DNA of 64,000 bases from Escherichia coli (GTDB lineage Bacteria > Pseudomonadota > Gammaproteobacteria > Enterobacterales > Enterobacteriaceae). The first letter of the stretch is position 1. Each line of letters opens with the position of its first letter. Below, one piece after another: positions 5,951 to 64,000 of this stretch. A model generated the notes under the pieces. It had not been told where the DNA came from and ran no database searches. It saw nothing but the letters and a program-made list of their open reading frames with translations. The stretch is from assembly GCF_050920415.1 (NCBI RefSeq), contig NZ_CP169309.1; one strand, 5' to 3'. The position numbers and the translations under genes are program-made.

Positions 5951-6130
5951 AAAAGCGCCTTTAGGGCGCTTTTTTACATTGGTGGGTCGTGCAGGATGAC
6001 TCACTTCGCTCGCCCTTCGGGCCGTCGCCGCGAGCGGCTCCGTTGTTTCGCTGCGCTCAACTCGAACCTGCTGCAGGTTCGAATCTTTGAATATCCCAGA
6101 TAGCAAAAAAGCGCCTTTAGGGCGCTTTTT
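5951..6130 (-). repeat. Duplicated terminator hairpin plus vestigial tRNA-Lys 3' end, distal to lysQ
   Basis: aaaagcgcctttagggcgcttttt occurs at about 5951-5975 and 6106-6131; TTGGTGGGTCGTGCAGGAT (tRNA-Lys 3' end) recurs at 5979-5997 without the rest of the tRNA. Confidence 0.7.
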
Positions 6131-6136
6131 TTACAT

Positions 6137-6212
6137 TGGTGGGTCGTGCAGGATTCGAACCTGCGACCAATTGATTAAAAGTCAACTGCTCTACCAACTG
6201 AGCTAACGACCC
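6137..6212 (-). tRNA. lysQ: tRNA-Lys (anticodon UUU)
   Basis: Reverse complement gives a 76-nt tRNA GGGTCGTTAGCTCAG...CTTTTAATC...CACCA; position 7 of the operon. Confidence 0.93.
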
Positions 6213-6344
6213 CTTGCGGGATTATGCTGCTTTAATCATTCAGGATGGTGGGTCGTGCAGGATGACTCGACTTCGTCTCGCCCTTCGGGCCGTTGCTGAC
6301 GCAACGTTATCCTTCACATTCTCTACCAGTAACCACCTTTAAAT

Positions 6345-6420
6345 TGGTGGGTCGTGCAGGATTCGAACCTGCGACCAATTGATTAAAAGTCAACTGCTCT
6401 ACCAACTGAGCTAACGACCC
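6345..6420 (-). tRNA. lysZ: tRNA-Lys (anticodon UUU)
   Basis: Identical 76-nt tRNA-Lys copy. Confidence 0.93.
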
Positions 6421-6566
6421 ATACGGGTGTTACCTGAATGATTTCTACTCGGGACCAATCTTTAATATTGGTGGATCGTGCAGGATGACTCGCTTCGCTC
6501 GCCCTACGGGCCGTTGCTGGCGCAACGTTATCCTTCACGCTTAACATCTGAGTTTGATGTTAAAAC

Positions 6567-6642
6567 TGGTGGGTCGTGCAGGATTCGAACCTGCGACCAA
6601 TTGATTAAAAGTCAACTGCTCTACCAACTGAGCTAACGACCC
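6567..6642 (-). tRNA. lysY: tRNA-Lys (anticodon UUU)
   Basis: Identical 76-nt tRNA-Lys copy. Confidence 0.93.
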
Positions 6643-6645
6643 GAG

Positions 6646-6721
6646 TGGTGGGTGATGACGGGATCGAACCGCCGACCCCCTCCTTGTAAGGGAGGTGCTC
6701 TCCCAGCTGAGCTAATCACCC
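6646..6721 (-). tRNA. valZ: tRNA-Val (anticodon UAC)
   Basis: Reverse complement gives GGGTGATTAGCTCAGCTGGGAGAGCACCTCCCTTACAAGGAGG...CACCA; 3 nt from lysY. Confidence 0.93.
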
Positions 6722-6771
6722 GATACTGCGCTGGATACTACAAACTACTTCCACCGAACCCACCGCATTAG

Positions 6772-6847
6772 TGGTGGGTCGTGCAGGATTCGAACCTGCG
6801 ACCAATTGATTAAAAGTCAACTGCTCTACCAACTGAGCTAACGACCC
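6772..6847 (-). tRNA. lysW: tRNA-Lys (anticodon UUU)
   Basis: Identical 76-nt tRNA-Lys copy. Confidence 0.93.
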
Positions 6848-6849
6848 GG

Positions 6850-6925
6850 TGGTGGGTGATGACGGGATCGAACCGCCGACCCCCTCCTTGTAAGGGAGGT
6901 GCTCTCCCAGCTGAGCTAATCACCC
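6850..6925 (-). tRNA. valT: tRNA-Val (anticodon UAC)
   Basis: Identical tRNA-Val copy, 2 nt from lysW. Confidence 0.93.
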
Positions 6926-7060
6926 GATACTACGCTGGATACTACAACTAACTAGGTTAGTGGTGGGTCGTGCAGGATGACTCGACTTCGTCTCGCCCTT
7001 CGGGCCGTTGCTGACGCAACGTTATCCTTCACGTTTTACTACCGCTTCCACCTTAGCGAT

Positions 7061-7136
7061 TGGTGGGTCGTGCAGGATTCGAACCTGCGACCAATTGATT
7101 AAAAGTCAACTGCTCTACCAACTGAGCTAACGACCC
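7061..7136 (-). tRNA. lysT: tRNA-Lys (anticodon UUU)
   Basis: First gene of the operon; identical 76-nt tRNA-Lys. Confidence 0.93.
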
Positions 7137-7300: not shown

Positions 7301-8092
7301 TTACATCGCGTTCAGACGTTTTTGCGCCTGTTTTGCGCCATCAGTACCAGGGTATTTACTGATAACCTGCTGGTATACGGCTTTCGCTTTTGCGGTGTCA
7401 CCTTTCTCCTGCATGATGACGCCGACTTTAAACATCGCATCTGCAGCCTTCGGTGACTTCGGATAGTTTTTCACTACCGAAGCAAAATAATACGCCGCAT
7501 CATCTTTTTTACCCTTGTTGTAGTTTAACTGACCCAGCCAATAATTGGCGTTTGGCAGGTAAGTTGAATCAGGGTAATTTTTGATGAAATTCTGAAATGC
7601 CACCATTGCGTCATCCTGGCGGGATTTATCCTGCACCAGCGCAATAGCTGCATTGTAATCCGTGTTTGCATCACCGCTTTTCACCGGCGCGCCAGCATTC
7701 GCAGTACCAGCATCAGCTGTCGGCGTCGTTGATGCCGCCGCACCGCTTTGATCGCCGCTGGTTGATTGCGCCGCTGCACCACCGCTGCTGAGGCTATCGA
7801 TCTGCAACAGGATCTGCTTTTGCCGCTCCACGACCTGATTCAGTTGATACTGATTTTCCTGAATCTGACCACGCAGGGAATCAATATCGGATTGATTATC
7901 AGAGAGTTGTTGCTGGAGTTGGGTTAAAAGCTGGCTGTGAGCATTAGAAATACGCTCAAGTTGAGTGACGCGGTCTTCGACCGAGCCTGAGCCGACACTA
8001 CTGATTGGTGCCTGAGCAAAAGCGGCCCAGGGGGCCGCTATACCAACCAGTAACGACAGACTCAATAGTTGATGTCTGAAGTTACTGCTCAT
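7301..8092 (-). CDS. cpoB: Cell-division coordinator CpoB (YbgF), TPR protein
   Basis: 263-aa protein with signal peptide, coiled-coil/Q-rich region and C-terminal TPR repeats; last gene of tol-pal. Confidence 0.9.
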   Translation of the reverse strand: MSSNFRHQLLSLSLLVGIAAPWAAFAQAPISSVGSGSVEDRVTQLERISNAHSQLLTQLQQQLSDNQSDIDSLRGQIQENQYQLNQVVERQKQILLQIDSLSSGGAAAQSTSGDQSGAAASTTPTADAGTANAGAPVKSGDANTDYNAAIALVQDKSRQDDAMVAFQNFIKNYPDSTYLPNANYWLGQLNYNKGKKDDAAYYFASVVKNYPKSPKAADAMFKVGVIMQEKGDTAKAKAVYQQVISKYPGTDGAKQAQKRLNAM

Positions 8093-8101
8093 GCAATTCT
8101 C

Positions 8102-8647
<546 letters not shown>

Positions 8648-34209: not shown

Positions 34210-34380
34210 CCCGTAGGCCTGATAAGACGCGCAAGCGTCGCATCAGGCATCGCGTGTCGGATGCGGCGCGAGCGCCTTATCCGACCTACATCGGTGCTTC
34301 CCGTAGGCCTGATAAGACGCGTTAAGCGTCGCATCAGGCTTCAATTGCCGGAGAAAGCGATAATGCCTCATCCGGTCTAC
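34210..34380. repeat. REP/BIME cluster in the sucB-sucC spacer
   Basis: Three or more REP palindromes of the gcctgataagacgcg...cgtcgcatcaggc / gccggatgcggcg types. Confidence 0.75.
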
Positions 34381-38609: not shown

Positions 38610-38688
38610 TTGTAGGCCGGATAACGCATTCACGCCGCATCCGGCACTGGTTGCCTGATGCGACGCTTGTGCGTCTTATCAGGCCTGG
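38610..38688. repeat. REP pair in the sdhB-sucA spacer
   Basis: Two REP palindromes; an additional aaaaactg...cagttttt hairpin lies at about 38556-38590. Confidence 0.7.
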
Positions 38689-56492: not shown

Positions 56493-58157
<1,665 letters not shown>

Positions 58158-58169
58158 CAGGCCAGCACC

Positions 58170-58285
58170 GATGCCTGATAAGACGCTTAATGCGTCTTAT
58201 CAGGTCTGGATGTCCCTGCAATATATTGAATTTGCACTATTTGCCAGGCCGGAGAAGGCGTTCACGCAGTATCCGGCATCCGGGC
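58170..58285. repeat. REP elements after dtpD
   Basis: gatgcctgataagacgcttaatgcgtcttatcaggtc palindrome plus a second REP-like unit. Confidence 0.7.
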
Positions 58286-58305
58286 AAGATTGCCTGACGC
58301 GTCTG

Positions 58306-59724
58306 TTATTTCCCCTTCCTCGCCGCCTCATACGCTGCTAACGTTCGTACTCTCGCTTCTTTGTGATCGACTATCGGTTGCGGATAATCCAGCGTCACAC
58401 CTGCTTTCTGCGCCCACTTCCACGGTTCATGCACCGCTTTCCCTGGTACATCACGCAACTCTGGTAACCACTGGCGGATAAACTCACCTTCGTGGTCAAA
58501 TTTCTCGCCCTGAGTTGTCGGGTTGAAAATACGGAAATACGGTGCAGCATCAGTTCCAGTAGAAGCCGCCCATTGCCAGCCACCGTTATTGGCTGCCAAA
58601 TCACCATCAATCAGTTGCGACATGAAATATCGCTCGCCTTCCCGCCAGTCGATCAGCAAATCTTTCACCAGAAAACTGGCAGTAATCATCCGCAGGCGAT
58701 TATGCATCCAGCCAGTGCTGTTAAGCTGACGCATGGCCGCATCAACAATCGGGTATCCCGTTTTGCCTTCCTGCCAGGCCTTTAAATGGGCGGGATTGCT
58801 TTGCCATTGCACGCGGTCGGTCCAGGCAATAAACGGTCGATGTTTACACAACGAGGGGTAATACGTCATCAGATGACGGTAGAACTCGCGCCAGATCAAC
58901 TCATTAAGCCAGACGCTACCGGCCCCACCGTCCAGCGCCTGCGGCTGTTCCGCCAACAGGCGATGCAGACACTGGCGAGGCGATAACCCGCCCGTTGCCA
59001 GGCTGGCGGACAAACGGCTGGTGCCTTCCACTGCAGGAAAATCTCGTTGTTGCTCGTACTCCCCTGCTCCGCTCTGGCAAAACTGGCGTAATTGCGCAAT
59101 CGCCGCTTTCTCTTCCACCGGGAAATGCGCAGTATCGAAAGGCTGACGAGGATAATTCAGCGTAATGGATGGCGCGGCTTCTATCATTACGCTACTACGT
59201 ACTTTTGGCGCAGCGACGCACTCCGGCACCCCTTCTCGCAGCCGTTTCAGCCAGGCGTTTTTAAATGGAGTAAAGACTTTGTACATCTCATGATTACCAG
59301 TCATCACCGCCCCCGGCGGCAGGATCACGCTGTCATCAAATCCTTCACACACCACGTTACGCAGCGTTCTCTCAACCTGCACATCCCGCGCCCGCTCATT
59401 CACCTCATACTGATAGTTATAAAACAGATGAGTAACACGATTTTCCGCGCACACCTGTTTAACTATTTCGACGCTGGCGGCAAAGTCATCCACTTCATGA
59501 AACAGCAAAGGAATGCCTTTTTCCGCCAGCGCGATTTGTAGCCCGTTCAGTTGTGCATTGATAAATTCAGCCTGACGCGGCGACACATTATGCGCCGCCC
59601 ACTGGCGTGGTGTAGCGATATACAACGCCAGCACGCGTGCAGACGAATTGCGGCAGGCGGCAGCAAGCGCGAGATTGTCGTGCAGACGTAAATCCTGGCG
59701 AAACCAGACCAGATGGGTAGTCAT
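58306..59724 (-). CDS. phr: Deoxyribodipyrimidine photolyase
   Basis: 472-aa match to photolyase. Confidence 0.95.
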   Translation of the reverse strand: MTTHLVWFRQDLRLHDNLALAAACRNSSARVLALYIATPRQWAAHNVSPRQAEFINAQLNGLQIALAEKGIPLLFHEVDDFAASVEIVKQVCAENRVTHLFYNYQYEVNERARDVQVERTLRNVVCEGFDDSVILPPGAVMTGNHEMYKVFTPFKNAWLKRLREGVPECVAAPKVRSSVMIEAAPSITLNYPRQPFDTAHFPVEEKAAIAQLRQFCQSGAGEYEQQRDFPAVEGTSRLSASLATGGLSPRQCLHRLLAEQPQALDGGAGSVWLNELIWREFYRHLMTYYPSLCKHRPFIAWTDRVQWQSNPAHLKAWQEGKTGYPIVDAAMRQLNSTGWMHNRLRMITASFLVKDLLIDWREGERYFMSQLIDGDLAANNGGWQWAASTGTDAAPYFRIFNPTTQGEKFDHEGEFIRQWLPELRDVPGKAVHEPWKWAQKAGVTLDYPQPIVDHKEARVRTLAAYEAARKGK

Positions 59725-60230
59725 AAAACTCCTGCATGGCGCAAGTTAATCACCCGCGGCCAAAGTTCGAAATAACGCTGCTCTGAAAGCCAGGCGTCAG
59801 GATAAAGCGCCATATAGTGTTTGATACGCATCAGCGGCGCAAGAAGCGGTTGCTCGCCACGGCGATAACTGTCGATAAGCGCCGCCAGTTGTAGACGTGC
59901 TGCGGAGTCAAGGTGTGGGCGAAAATAACCCTGAACGTGCATCAAAACGTTTGTATGATCGCGCCGATTGGCGGGATGAGAAAGCAAAACAATGACGCGT
60001 TGGCGGTACTGGTTGTAATAATCATCCAGATTTTGCCACTGGTGAATATCTGCCACAAACGGGCCAAGTTTGCGGTATTCCGGCTGGGAATGGGCCAGAA
60101 AGACGAGTTTATAGCGGCTGTGATAATCGAGAAGCGCCCCGCGCGTTAAGCCGTGTGATTTCAGTCGATGTAACTCATGAAGGGCGAAGATACGGATTAG
60201 AGTGCTGTCATCAAATCGTTGCTGATTCAT
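59721..60230 (-). CDS. ybgA: DUF1722-family protein YbgA
   Basis: 169 aa, overlapping the phr start; K-12 synteny. Confidence 0.9.
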   Translation of the reverse strand: MNQQRFDDSTLIRIFALHELHRLKSHGLTRGALLDYHSRYKLVFLAHSQPEYRKLGPFVADIHQWQNLDDYYNQYRQRVIVLLSHPANRRDHTNVLMHVQGYFRPHLDSAARLQLAALIDSYRRGEQPLLAPLMRIKHYMALYPDAWLSEQRYFELWPRVINLRHAGVL

Positions 60231-60347
60231 TACTGCTCCTGAACGGTTTACAGGAGTAAGTGTAGACGTTGGGAAATGATATTTGTGAAGTTAATCCTGT
60301 TGTAGCAGGGCAAGATTACGAAAGCCCGCTCCCCGCAAGGACTGACG

Positions 60348-60893
60348 TCAGCTAGTTTCTGTCCATAGCTGCCCTTTCCATTCAAACGTGAAATCAATAA
60401 GTTCATCAGGGACATCGCAAACAATGTGAAGACGGATTTCTTCTCTGCCGTGACTCTTTTCACTAATTGCGTAACTGTCATGCTCTGGATTATTTAATTC
60501 TTTCAGCGGAAATTTTTCCTCGAAGGCTTTATTTAGCCGCCCCTGGTTTCCTTTTACAGCGAATAAATAATCACCTCCCTGTTTTTGTATCTTCTCTGCA
60601 ATATCTTTCTGGCAACCCATCGCATCAGTTGTGATGATTTTTCCTTTAATATCCAGCATGTTAAGAAGTTCCGGGGTAGCTGTAATCTCAATACCATTTT
60701 CAAAATCACCATATTGCTTCAAAAAATCGAGATGTGTTTCCCCAAAATCCTCTATATCTTCCCAACCTTCCGCACCCGAAATAACGGCGCAAATAGTCAA
60801 CAGTAGAATATCCGATAATTTATGCTCCACTTTCCAGGCTTGTCTGTAATCGGGGATAATAGAAATATGTTCCATCAATTTTTTAAGTTCCAT
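60348..60893 (-). pseudogene. ybfD: H-repeat-associated (ISAs1-family transposase-like) protein, shortened copy
   Basis: N-terminal 70 aa and a later block ([47 protein letters not shown]) match H-repeat proteins, but the ORF is 181 aa with an apparent internal deletion and early stop. Confidence 0.6.
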
Positions 60894-61099
60894 TTTGTTC
60901 TCCTTAATTATGTAAGGAGTATTTGATCATGTATAAGCAATAAAAAACAGCTTCAGGTAATGAGGAATATCTCAATTTTTAAACATAAAATGCGAATTAT
61001 TTAGTACAAAAAAGCAGCGTTAAGTGAGTAGGCCACCGGAACCTCCCCGACAGCCTCTCGCAGAACCGTACGTGAAACTCTCGCTTCATACGGCTCCCG

Positions 61100-62353
61100 T
61101 CAGGCAAACGCGCTTCCTGGTCCTGCTTTCCAGTGGGCAAACAACTCCGGCTTCTCTTTTGACAGCCTTTCCATTAGCTGACACGCCTTCGTCTTTCTAT
61201 ACCGCAGGGTTTTATATTTCTTTCTCGCCCACGCAATCAGCGTCAGATTAATATATCTGCATACTTTCTTCATCGCTGATTTGTGGTATCTCGCGTAATA
61301 ATTCAGCCACCCCGATATTATCGGATTCAGCCACTTCGCAATATCTTCGAGACTCATCTCCACCCTGCGTCTGATCCACAGTTTCCTGAGTTTTCCAATC
61401 ATGCCTTTCTGCGCACGGTTACTCGCCGCCGGGCTGAAACTCGTAAAGAGGTTTCCCCGCCGGTGGTTACGTGCTCTTCGCGCTCTGAACGTATACCCCA
61501 GAAAATCAAACTGCACTGTTTCATGGTTCGCCTGTCGTTCGCTGTCTTTGCAGTAAACTACTTTCGTTTTCTCCGGATGTAATTCCAGTCCACATTCCTG
61601 AAAACGTTTTGCCAGCTTATTCAGTAATTCCTCTGCCTGTTGTTTACTGCCACAATGAATTAATCCATCATCTGCATAACGGCACCAGGGAATTTCCGGA
61701 TAATGTAACGTCAGCCATTTATCAAACACATAGTGCAGAAATAAATTCGCCAGTACCGGGCTGATGACTCCACCCTGTGGCGTACCTTTATTTCTTTCCT
61801 TCAGTGTTCCATCCGGCATCTGCACCGGCGCTGTCAGCCACCGGCGAATAGACAGTCTTACCCATTTATCCGCACAATGTTTATCTACTGCCCTGAGTAA
61901 TAAATCGTGGGAGATATTATCGAATAACCCTTTAATATCAAACTCAAGACACCAGTCGTATTGCCAGCAACGTTTTCTGGTGACTGCTATTGCATCCAGC
62001 GCTGATTTTCCATGCCGGTATCCGTATGAATCATTCAGGAAATAACGCTCCACTAATGGTTCAAACGTTACCAGCACCGTCATCTGCGCTATTCGATCGC
62101 TTACTGTCGGTATTCCTAAAAGTCTTTTGCTGCCATCCTTCTTCGGAATTTCCACCGCACGCACTGGCGGCGGCATCCAGCTTCCCGACGATAACCTGTT
62201 CCAGATTTTGTACAGATTTCCTTTCAGATCCCGCTCAAAATCTTTCAGCGTCTGGTTATCCACTCCGGCAGCTCCGGCATTCGCCTTTATCCGCCGGTAC
62301 GCTTCCACCACATGCAATTTACTGACCTGAAACGGTTTTGTCTGTTCACACAC
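61100..62353 (-). CDS. Group II intron-encoded reverse transcriptase/maturase
   Basis: 417 aa; RT blocks (PVRAVEIPKKDGSKRLLGIPTVSDRIAQ, GTPQGGVISPVLANLFL, YADD) and maturase X domain (ISGWLNYYARY); GTG start with AGGAGGAGG RBS. Confidence 0.8.
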   Translation of the reverse strand: MCEQTKPFQVSKLHVVEAYRRIKANAGAAGVDNQTLKDFERDLKGNLYKIWNRLSSGSWMPPPVRAVEIPKKDGSKRLLGIPTVSDRIAQMTVLVTFEPLVERYFLNDSYGYRHGKSALDAIAVTRKRCWQYDWCLEFDIKGLFDNISHDLLLRAVDKHCADKWVRLSIRRWLTAPVQMPDGTLKERNKGTPQGGVISPVLANLFLHYVFDKWLTLHYPEIPWCRYADDGLIHCGSKQQAEELLNKLAKRFQECGLELHPEKTKVVYCKDSERQANHETVQFDFLGYTFRARRARNHRRGNLFTSFSPAASNRAQKGMIGKLRKLWIRRRVEMSLEDIAKWLNPIISGWLNYYARYHKSAMKKVCRYINLTLIAWARKKYKTLRYRKTKACQLMERLSKEKPELFAHWKAGPGSAFA

Positions 62354-62481
62354 AGCCTCCTCCTGCCTACAGTTGGGCTGTGATGCAGACTAGACTGGCC
62401 CCCTGAATCTCCAGACAACCAGTATCACTTAAATAAGTGATAGTCTTAATACTAGTTTTTAGACTAGTCATTGGAGAACAG

Positions 62482-62847
62482 ATGATTGATGTCTTAGGGC
62501 CGGAGAAACGCAGACGGCGTACCACACAGGAAAAGATCGCAATTGTTCAGCAGAGCTTTGAACCGGGGATGACGGTCTCCCTCGTTGCCCGGCAACATGG
62601 TGTAGCAGCCAGCCAGTTATTTCTCTGGCGTAAGCAATACCAGGAAGGAAGTCTTACTGCTGTCGCCGCCGGAGAACAGGTTGTTCCTGCCTCTGAACTT
62701 GCTGCCGCCATGAAGCAGATTAAAGAACTCCAGCGCCTGCTCGGCAAGAAAACGATGGAAAATGAACTCCTCAAAGAAGCCGTTGAATATGGACGGGCAA
62801 AAAAGTGGATAGCGCACGCGCCCTTATTGCCCGGGGATGGGGAGTAA
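62482..62847 (+). CDS. insC: IS2 OrfA (InsC) HTH protein
   Basis: [53 protein letters not shown]... Confidence 0.9.
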
Positions 62848-63710
62848 GCTTAGTCAGCCGTTGTCTCCGGGTGTCGCGTGCGCAGTTGCACGTCATTCTC
62901 AGACGAACCGATGACTGGATGGATGGCCGCCGCAGTCGTCACACTGATGATACGGATGTGCTTCTCCGTATACACCATGTTATCGGAGAGCTGCCCACGT
63001 ATGGTTATCGTCGGGTATGGGCGCTGCTTCGCAGACAGGCAGAACTTGATGGTATGCCTGCAATCAATGCCAAACGTGTTTACCGGATCATGCGCCAGAA
63101 TGCGCTGTTGCTTGAGCGAAAACCTGCTGTACCGCCATCGAAACGGGCACATACAGGCAGAGTGGCCGTGAAAGAAAGCAATCAGCGATGGTGCTCTGAC
63201 GGGTTCGAGTTCTGCTGTGATAACGGAGAGAGACTGCGTGTCACGTTCGCGCTGGACTGCTGTGATCGTGAGGCACTGCACTGGGCGGTGACTACTGGCG
63301 GCTTCAACAGTGAAACAGTACAGGACGTCATGCTGGGAGCGGTGGAACGCCGCTTCGGCAACGATCTTCCGTCGTCTCCAGTGGAGTGGCTGACGGATAA
63401 TGGTTCATGCTACCGGGCTAATGAAACACGCCAGTTCGCCCGGATGTTGGGACTTGAACCGAAGAACACGGCGGTGCGGAGTCCGGAGAGTAACGGAATA
63501 GCAGAGAGCTTCGTGAAAACGATAAAGCGTGACTACATCAGTATCATGCCCAAACCAGACGGGTTAACGGCAGCAAAGAACCTTGCAGAGGCGTTCGAGC
63601 ATTATAACGAATGGCATCCGCATAGTGCGCTGGGTTATCGCTCGCCACGGGAATATCTGCGGCAGCGGGCTTGTAATGGGTTAAGTGATAACAGATGTCT
63701 GGAAATATAG
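62805..63710 (+). CDS. insD: IS2 OrfB (InsD) DDE transposase domain, normally expressed by -1 frameshift from insC
   Basis: 301-aa integrase-core ORF overlapping insC in the -1 frame. Confidence 0.9.
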
Positions 63711-64000
63711 GGGCAAATCCACAGACTGCCCGACGCTGTCCCTTCGCTCCACGTTCATTACAAACGCTTCCTCACTACTACGAACAGCTCTGCCCCGGTT
63801 TCGCACATCGATACTCTCATACTCATAATTTCGGTTATTTGTATTTCTCTCTTGAAATTGCGACGACCGGTTCCCGTAGTTCCTGCAAAGAGCCTGATAC
63901 AGCGTCATGCCTGCTATACACCGGACACCATTCACGCAGCATTCGGAATTCACCCGTAAATTAATCCCGGCGGTATCACGAAACCTCCGGTTTTGATGTC

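Follow-up and report, generated by a model that had tools for sequence, protein, structure and literature searches.

The window analysed here is a stretch of 64,000 nucleotides (nt) of the Escherichia coli chromosome (NCBI RefSeq assembly GCF_050920415.1, contig NZ_CP169309.1), in which the genes dtpD (56676–58157, +), phrB (58306–59724, −) and ybgA (59721–60230, −) precede a cluster of mobile DNA at the right edge. Between 60306 and 64000, on the minus strand, come first what is left of an ISAs1-family H-repeat element, next the 3′ two-thirds of a group II intron, then an entire IS2, which runs on the opposite strand, and lastly 279 nt more of the intron (Table 1). With a probability of about 0.9, we read this right edge as a three-level nest of known elements, that is, IS2 in the intron E.c.I9 in an H-repeat, at the RhsC/ybfD locus beside ybgA. 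On this reading the first level is an H-repeat of the ISAs1 family (ISEc1) that two internal deletions have crippled, the second is E.c.I9, an intron catalogued as class D (IIB3-type, with no endonuclease domain) and seated in its catalogued homing site in the same orientation as the transposase, and the third is an IS2 that transposed recently into domain IV of the intron and duplicated GUCUG (CAGAC on the plus strand). Every feature that an earlier note on this DNA had named was found where that note had placed it. The IS2-free copies used for comparison were those of strain MFDS1022581 at the kdp-ybfA...ybgA-phrB locus (L001), of strain WL297 at the ydcC locus (L002) and a further, intact copy of MFDS1022581 (L005).

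Table 1. Features of the nest at the right edge of the window. Positions are those of the window unless marked as intron positions.
Feature	Position	Strand	Evidence or remark
H-repeat part 3′ of the intron	60306..61022	−	BLAST to the intact L002 copy; similarity to other loci stops exactly at 60306
H-repeat right terminal inverted repeat, plus strand cagggcaagattacg	60306..60320	−	13/15 match to the left repeat CAGGGAAAGATCACG
Defective H-repeat transposase open reading frame (ORF), 181 amino acids (aa) against 378 in the intact copy	60348..60893	−	DDE_Tnp_1_assoc and DDE_Tnp_1
Intron E.c.I9, 3′ part (intron positions 520–1887): most of domain IV with the reverse transcriptase (RT)/maturase ORF, domains V and VI	61023..62390	−	100% identity to H60/L005
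Domain V (61063–61096) and domain VI (61026–61059)	61023..61098	−	Rfam RF00029
Domain IV basal helix, 3′ strand GCCUGAC, overlapping the ORF stop codon	61099..61105	−	Pairs with intron 512–518
RT/maturase ORF, 417 codons from GTG	61100..62353	−	RVT_1 (E = 1e-41) and GIIM (E = 3e-13), Pfam
Inner domain IV helix, 3′ strand CAGAC	62340..62344	−	5′ strand GUCUG is the IS2 target
IS2 target duplication CAGAC, left copy	62386..62390	.	
IS2, 1331 base pairs (bp), full length, transposase genes opposite to the intron strand	62391..63721	+	100% covered, 99.9% identity to annotated IS2
insC-like ORF (orfA, HTH_Tnp_1)	start 62437 or 62483, to 62847	+	Open frame
insD-like ORF (orfB, rve)	62805–63710	+	Open frame
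IS2 target duplication CAGAC, right copy	63722..63726	.	
Intron E.c.I9, 5′ part in the window (intron positions 246–524): distal domain I with exon-binding site 1 (EBS1), domains II and III, 5′ strand of the domain IV basal helix (63728–63734)	63722..64000	−	
Domain III	63735..63788	−	Covariation in related introns
EBS1, CGUGAU (minus strand)	63975..63980	−	Complement of AUCACG, the last 6 nt of the H-repeat left inverted repeat
Domain III basal helix	intron 458–464/505–511		7/7 pairs in 10/10 introns, several pair types per position
Domain III terminal hairpin	intron 479–484/490–495		Invariant loop GUAAU
Domain IV basal helix	intron 512–518/1805–1811		7/7 pairs in 10/10 introns; compensatory changes, e.g. 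GUCGGGC/GCCUGAC to AUCAAGC/GCUUGAU
Inner domain IV helix	intron 520–524/566–570		5/5 pairs in 7/10 introns, several pair types at 4/5 positions

Identity of the intron and of the IS2 copy

The two intron segments in the window (61023–62390 and 63722–64000) together amount to positions 246–1887 of the 1887-nt E.c.I9. The RF00029 match at 61023–61098 (−) scores 62.8 bits against a gathering score of 40 (E = 5e-11), the bulged branch-point A is nucleotide 61029, which is 7 nt away from the 3′ splice site (61023), and the pairs of domain VI covary in relatives. The 3′ end of the intron, after CTCACT, is set by comparison with the empty site and by the published E.c.I9 coordinates. The ORF at 61100–62353 represents the C-terminal 417 codons of a 440-codon ORF that is annotated in intact copies. 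The full-length ORF attains 425.6 bits on the NCBIfam profile TIGR04416 (group_II_RT_mat, cutoff 300), and profile scans of the RT/maturase ORF, which ends at domain V, gave no endonuclease domain. The match to domains V and VI, the presence of RVT_1 together with GIIM and the TIGR04416 score above cutoff bear out the earlier assignment of this RT to a group II intron and not to a retron. A retron or other defence-type RT with coincidental hairpins downstream has next to no chance of being correct: the matches that speak for it are weak and sub-threshold (Drt3a, 77 bits; retron St85 RT, 54 bits) against cutoffs of 200 and 235, respectively, compared with 425.6 against 300 for TIGR04416, and it was rejected on the presence of GIIM, the existence of a precise empty site and matches to domains V/VI and domain I well above threshold. 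A class C intron inserted after a terminator was also considered on account of the short protein and the missing endonuclease domain, and was dropped, as E.c.I9 is published as class D and its site is the terminal repeat of an insertion sequence (IS).

Comparison with the catalogued group II introns of E. coli, which the earlier note had recommended, identified the window copy as E.c.I9. The full-length element is recorded at NC_010468 2411599–2413485 (−) as class D (Leclercq and Cordaux 2012, supplement; PMC3522654) and is listed as class D, RT-X, with a length of 1887 nt (Toro and Martinez-Abarca 2013, Table S1; PMC3552965); the sequence extracted from these coordinates is indeed a 1887-nt element that starts with GTGTGCC and ends with CTCACT. 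With IS2 removed, the window intron is 96.2% identical to this reference (strain ATCC 8739, CP000946/NC_010468) over positions 248–1887. The two have in common the length of 1887 nt, the GTGTG/CTCACT ends, a position 15 bp inside the H-repeat left end and an RT-X without endonuclease domain, whereas they differ by 64 substitutions over positions 246–1887, in the EBS1 loop (CGUGAU here, GAUGAU in the reference) and at intron position 557, where the window variant has GTG and the reference GCG. In addition, the window copy is interrupted by IS2 and lies at the ybfD/ybgA locus, whereas the reference lies at the ydcC/pptA locus. E.c.I2 (IntB; X77508, 1891 nt, 416-aa protein; PMC3552965, Table S1), compared by its published description only, is of the same class and shares the host IS family (ISEc1) and the Rhs context, but the positions that E.c.I2 and E.c.I9 target in the Rhs IS, which is equated with ISEc1-5, are not the same (PMC3522654). 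Similarly, RmInt1 of Sinorhizobium meliloti (Sr.me.I1, in ISRm2011-2) is class D by the published tables, has ∼1.9 kb and an RT-X without endonuclease domain and homes into an IS, but its host IS and target sequence are different, and its mechanism is carried over here by analogy.

The copies without IS2 show what is interrupted. Among complete E. coli genomes the best hit is MFDS1022581 (L001), in which the sequences on both sides of IS2 match at 99.7% and are colinear across the gap, with an overlap that consists of the duplicated target only; the 5′ part of the intron (63722–64000) is 99.6% identical to L001. The L001 copy itself carries a 1-nt deletion that frameshifts ltrA, and this deletion is absent from the window copy. 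L002 is likewise free of IS2 and has an intact ltrA followed by an intact H-repeat transposase. The domain I structure that the earlier note expected on the far side of IS2 is present in these colinear copies, which have the 5′ end GUGUG and a domain I match to RF01999 (group-II-D1D4-2) of 93.1 bits against a gathering score of 36 (L002). When IS2 and one copy of the duplication are removed, the window intron has 0 differences over 1,642 nt to L005, in which ltrA is annotated as intact. Thus, IS2 is the only lesion in the visible part of the intron and is recent.

The claim of an intact IS2 with a CAGAC duplication interrupting the intron stands, in that the copy is complete, both of its frames are open and the IS2-free L001 is colinear across the gap. 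In its 1331 bp, its two overlapping ORFs and its 5-bp target duplication the copy agrees with IS2 of the IS3 family, and only the insertion site differs. The IS2/intron junction is absent from the 5,426 complete E. coli genomes searched, and no record spans the region with IS2 in place. Absence of the junction from every other complete genome, together with the high repetition of IS2 in related strains (20 places in the MFDS1022581 chromosome), could be taken to indicate a repeat that was collapsed or misjoined into the intron during assembly; we consider such an artefact highly improbable, as a perfect 5-bp target duplication, a complete 1331-bp IS2 and two flanks that are colinear with an uninterrupted intron are the signature of a true transposition. 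In strains GmM062 and CX08 an IS1 is inserted in the ORF of the same intron (hits H71 and H72), and insertion of an IS into E.c.I9 is thus not unique to the window.

The place of IS2 in the intron RNA was established with nine related introns (proteins 60–79% identical), of which eight are complete and one (L007) is cut at its 5′ end by the contig. The eight complete relatives were aligned with two E.c.I9 variants, and helices were derived from the RNAalifold consensus and from direct pair counts over these ten introns. The inner domain IV helix has as its 5′ strand precisely the IS2 target GUCUG, which lies 2 nt inside the basal helix of that domain. IS2 therefore lies in domain IV, and domains I–III, V and VI are untouched, so that the earlier placement within domains I–IV is correct as to the intron and is narrowed, by helices supported by covariation, to domain IV. 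Duplication of the target means that formation of the inner helix remains possible on the ORF side. The RT/maturase ORF is enclosed by the domain IV basal helix, with the exception of the annotated AUG and the first 8 codons, which are situated in domain III.

The H-repeat and the insertion site of the intron

The H-repeat sequence at 60306–61022 makes up 717 of the 732 bp that remain from a 1291-bp element, and the left inverted repeat, which contributes the other 15 bp, is located on the far side of the intron and past the end of the window; the figure of 1291 bp is that of the intact H-repeat after subtraction of the intron (L002, 3741–6918). The ORF scores 152.7 bits on the NCBIfam profile transpos_ISAs1 (NF033564) against a cutoff of 70. 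Relative to L002, the H-repeat lacks 246 bp near 60690, a loss that keeps the frame, and 313 bp at 60373–60381, a loss that shifts it. The reverse complement of the right end reads CAGGGCAAGATTACG, which shares 13 of its 15 positions with the left 15 nt, and both inverted-repeat ends coincide exactly with the points where homology between loci stops. These terminal repeats were compared by eye and by script; an automated repeat search with a 6-nt seed did not find the pair, the longest exact run being 5 nt. The H-repeat gene is thus degraded, as the earlier note had it, but it is not truncated at its end, since the right repeat is present at 60306–60320 and the damage consists of the two internal deletions. 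By the same token, the description of the region as a decaying accretion of mobile DNA is apt for the H-repeat but not for the intron, which apart from IS2 is identical to an intact copy elsewhere. With the H-rpt/ISEc1 elements of Rhs loci (the ybfD and ydcC copies) the window element has in common the terminal repeats, a transposase with DDE_Tnp_1_assoc and DDE_Tnp_1 and a location beside ybgA, where the RhsC-type locus has its edge, whereas the 246- and 313-bp internal deletions and the intron insertion set it apart. Two promoter-like sites on the transposase strand, at 60996–61023 (−) and 60907–60935 (−), lie between the 3′ end of the intron and the H-repeat ATG, and one of the pair straddles the intron/exon junction.

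The intron had been described as lying next to the H-repeat gene. This is not the case, as H-repeat sequence flanks it on both sides, with the 15 bp of the left repeat upstream and the rest downstream as far as 60306. With the left terminal repeat on one side and the transposase gene on the other, the intron lies 15 bp from the left end and is oriented like the gene. Similarity between the L001 and L002 loci begins 15 nt upstream of GTGTG, at CAGGGAAAGATCA, and the 15 nt upstream of the intron are CAGGGAAAGATCACG, the inverted repeat of the other H-repeat end. A synthetic junction of the 5′ and 3′ flanks matches uninterrupted sequence, i.e. an empty site, in 157 genomes, and alignment with the empty site of strain N3 (L003) shows that the intron is bounded by ...GATCACG upstream and TAACGC... 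downstream. In its own H-repeat the reference E.c.I9 copy is found at this position too. Splicing is predicted to ligate the H-repeat left repeat to TAACGCTGC....

EBS1 was assigned by comparing loops and exons across the relatives, a complementarity scan of one sequence and a minimum-free-energy fold of a single sequence having failed to settle it. At the end of the loop that comes after AAAACCGGAGG, 7 nt pair with the last seven exon nt of each intron's own 5′ exon, with 6–7 of 7 pairs in 8/8 relatives whose exons are unrelated; since the loop pairs with its own exon in all eight, it is EBS1. In the window this loop reads UUUCGUGAUA (plus strand 63974–63983). Copies L015 and L017 show perfect pairing between EBS1 and the exon; of the two, L017 is at the same ybfD locus. 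A putative EBS2 loop (UCCU in E.c.I9, UCCA or CCAG in relatives), which falls just outside the window, would pair around exon positions −14 to −10 (AGGG); the evidence for this UCCU/AGGG pairing of 4 bp is weaker. The 15-bp terminal repeat would accordingly supply both intron-binding sites (IBS), namely IBS2 (AGGG, −14 to −11) for EBS2 (UCCU) and IBS1 (AUCACG, −6 to −1) for EBS1 (CGUGAU), so that what RNA pairing reads of the homing site is, as judged from complementarity, the IS terminal inverted repeat itself. By analogy with class D introns such as RmInt1, insertion would proceed by reverse splicing into DNA followed by reverse transcription, with no need of an endonuclease. The EBS1 loop varies among E.c.I9 copies (L001, L002, L004, L005, L015, L017 and L020) between CGUGAU, CAUGAU and GAUGAU, with exons that end in AUCACG or AUCAUC; the GAUGAU of the ATCC 8739 reference would match the AUCAUC variant perfectly. 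In L013, an intron of the 416-aa type, the whole hairpin that bears EBS2 is absent (columns aligned to E.c.I9 ∼229–247).

Start of the maturase reading frame

The earlier note put IS2 37 nt upstream of the ORF start, a distance that is correct with respect to the GTG at 62353, although this GTG is probably not the true start, most relatives having no in-frame start there. Annotated starts are in conflict and give 440 aa (RefSeq), 417 aa (GTG 62353, intron position 557) or 405 aa (the intron database table, for the reference copy). The RefSeq start of the intact 440-codon ltrA is an AUG at intron positions 488–490 (window 63756–63758, −; L002 4243–4245), which forms part of the loop (GUAAU) and of the closing pair in the terminal hairpin that is conserved in domain III; the conserved N-terminus 'MxxERR' therefore overlaps conserved ribozyme sequence.

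The short form is favoured by GGAGGAGG, a strong Shine-Dalgarno-like sequence 5 nt upstream of the GTG that opens the 417-codon ORF, and by a sister clade of 415–416-aa proteins that starts one codon after the GTG position (MSQTKPF). Furthermore, alignment of the 440-aa form with the TIGR04416 profile and with solved group II RTs begins no earlier than residue 37; the solved RTs align from about their own residue 12–16, which corresponds to a point 14 residues after the GTG. On the other side, the reference E.c.I9 as well as 5/7 other sampled relatives with 440–446 aa (L006, L008, L009, L010 and L012) lack any ATG, GTG or TTG in frame between GGAGGAGG and the invariant TKPF. In these introns the frame is open all the way from the domain III AUG, and their lengths differ by whole codons. 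In L013, the one intron of the 416 type that was translated (by eye), the ORF is not in frame with the domain III AUG. The GTG at 62353 was at first favoured as the true start, a choice that was reversed on the DNA of these relatives without an in-frame start; the short ORF is kept as uncertain. On balance we lean towards a start of the protein at the domain III AUG in the E.c.I9 lineage, in which case IS2 probably splits the 440-codon ORF after nucleotide 37 (codon 13), as read from the frames, and leaves a 25-codon stub that ends inside IS2. The GTG at 62353, a substitution specific to this variant (GCG in the reference), could act as a restart codon, and the restart protein would begin one codon before the natural proteins of the sister clade.

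The evidence for the GTG (its GGAGGAGG, the start of the sister clade and the alignments of solved RTs) also speaks for the arrangement drawn in the earlier note, in which the intron lies beside an independently truncated ybfD-like gene and IS2 precedes the true ORF start and occupies non-coding ribozyme sequence in domains I–IV. That arrangement nevertheless appears improbable, given an intron that is flanked by H-repeat on both sides, an H-repeat of which both ends are present, and relatives of the 440 type that mostly lack an alternative in-frame start and keep the frame open from the domain III AUG.

Splicing, mobility and distribution

IS2 leaves the ribozyme core (domains I–III, V and VI) and 417 of the 440 ORF codons unchanged. 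It separates the ORF from the family-conserved AUG and from upstream transcription, and adds 1.3 kb of antisense IS2 to domain IV. A promoter scan (8 sites, a number not above the shuffled expectation of 4.5 ± 2.2) gave no promoter-like site facing from the left end of IS2 towards the ORF. The copy would thus no longer make its own maturase, and neither efficient splicing nor movement would be expected unless an intact copy elsewhere supplied the protein. The likeliest outcome, judged from the sequence and in line with what the earlier note had proposed, is that autonomous splicing and mobility are lost, and the cause would be a disrupted supply of protein together with the 1.3-kb antisense insert in domain IV and not damage to the ribozyme core.

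The composite could nevertheless still work. The core would fold normally, a GTG restart (417 aa) or another copy would provide the maturase, and the 3.2-kb intron would splice and perhaps move with IS2 as its cargo. Domain IV tolerates engineered cargo in group II introns, both GUCUG copies are present so that the inner helix can re-form on the ORF side, domains I–III, V and VI and the 417 codons are identical with their counterparts in the intact copy, and MFDS1022581 has three places that match the 3′ 1,368 nt of the intron, including an intact ltrA. Against this, no promoter-like site leads out of the left end of IS2 towards the ORF, 1.3 kb of antisense IS2 must be transcribed through, the 64-kb window has a single domain V, and no such composite was found at a second location among the 5,426 genomes. 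We therefore regard a working composite as unlikely, although less so than the other alternatives, and the narrower version, in which IS2 in a tolerant spot of domain IV plus the GTG restart would allow the 3.2-kb composite to splice, and possibly to retrohome with IS2 as natural cargo, as slightly less likely still.

The three-level nest, with loss of autonomous splicing and mobility, has several points weighing against it. The first 245 nt of the intron and its 5′ exon lie past 64000 and are known from other strains, not from this genome. The class D placement rests on the two published tables for E.c.I9 and on the identity of 96.2% to the reference, and the functional effect of IS2 is deduced from sequence. 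As for recognition of the target, the exons of the MFDS1022581 copies L001 and L005 end in AUCAUC, which forms 5/6 pairs with CGUGAU (one of them a G-U wobble) and leaves a C-C mismatch at −1, and in the reference E.c.I9 (ATCC 8739) GAUGAU has two mismatches to its own exon AUCACG. Such mismatches mean that some copies may have spread with the IS or by recombination and not by retrohoming.

For the nest, the sequence past 64000 is predicted to open with 245 intron nt, the last of which read ...CCTACGGCACAC on the plus strand and GTGTGCCGTAGG on the minus; next would come the H-repeat left repeat of 15 bp (minus strand, CAGGGAAAGATCAYN) and, after it, unrelated Rhs or type VI secretion system (T6SS) cargo similar to that of L001. 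At the orthologous locus of MFDS1022581 (L001, 1916–5658) a vgrG (tssI) pseudogene, a gene with an S-type pyocin domain and a bacteriocin immunity gene precede the H-repeat and intron, which puts the nest at the tail end of an effector cassette of T6SS/Rhs type.

Used as query, the 3′ 1,368 nt of the intron are found in 113 genomes out of 5,426 complete ones of E. coli; the median is one place per genome, and MFDS1022581 has three places and WL297 four. Relatives with proteins 60–79% identical also sit in insertion sequences (L006, L007, L010, L012 and L014). Among these, the metagenomic L006 and L007 (proteins 74–79% identical) interrupt transposase ORFs of the ISAs1 family within a conserved motif, between GWEDIE and DFG, a site different from that of E.c.I9; one relative is in an IS3-family (rve) element, one is in an IS66-family element, and L014 lies just after an ISAs1-family gene.

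Elsewhere in the window, seven tRNA genes at 5980–7136 (−), five with one identical score and two with another, are interleaved with four matches to RtT RNA (RF00391, 50–61 bits), and a full-length match to the CpoB/ybgF thermometer family (RF02782, 142 bits) is located at 8063–8201 (−). Copies of naRNA4 (RF02564), derived from repetitive extragenic palindromes, occur at 34216–34286 (−) and 38615–38685 (+), with weaker matches at 58122–58312; two are above the gathering score. The intergenic region between dtpD and phrB holds sub-threshold naRNA4 copies and an ES036-like match.

All three elements, the class of the intron and its Rhs-IS target are already published, and only this IS2 insertion allele is new, so that the finding matters little beyond annotation. 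Its useful by-products are small refinements, namely the placement of the intron inside the H-repeat terminal repeat, the homing site as the terminal repeat, the position of IS2 in domain IV and the question of the start codon. Finally, the IS2-in-E.c.I9 allele is private to this strain among the 5,426 complete genomes, and could serve as a strain marker and provide a dated example of one mobile element inactivating another.

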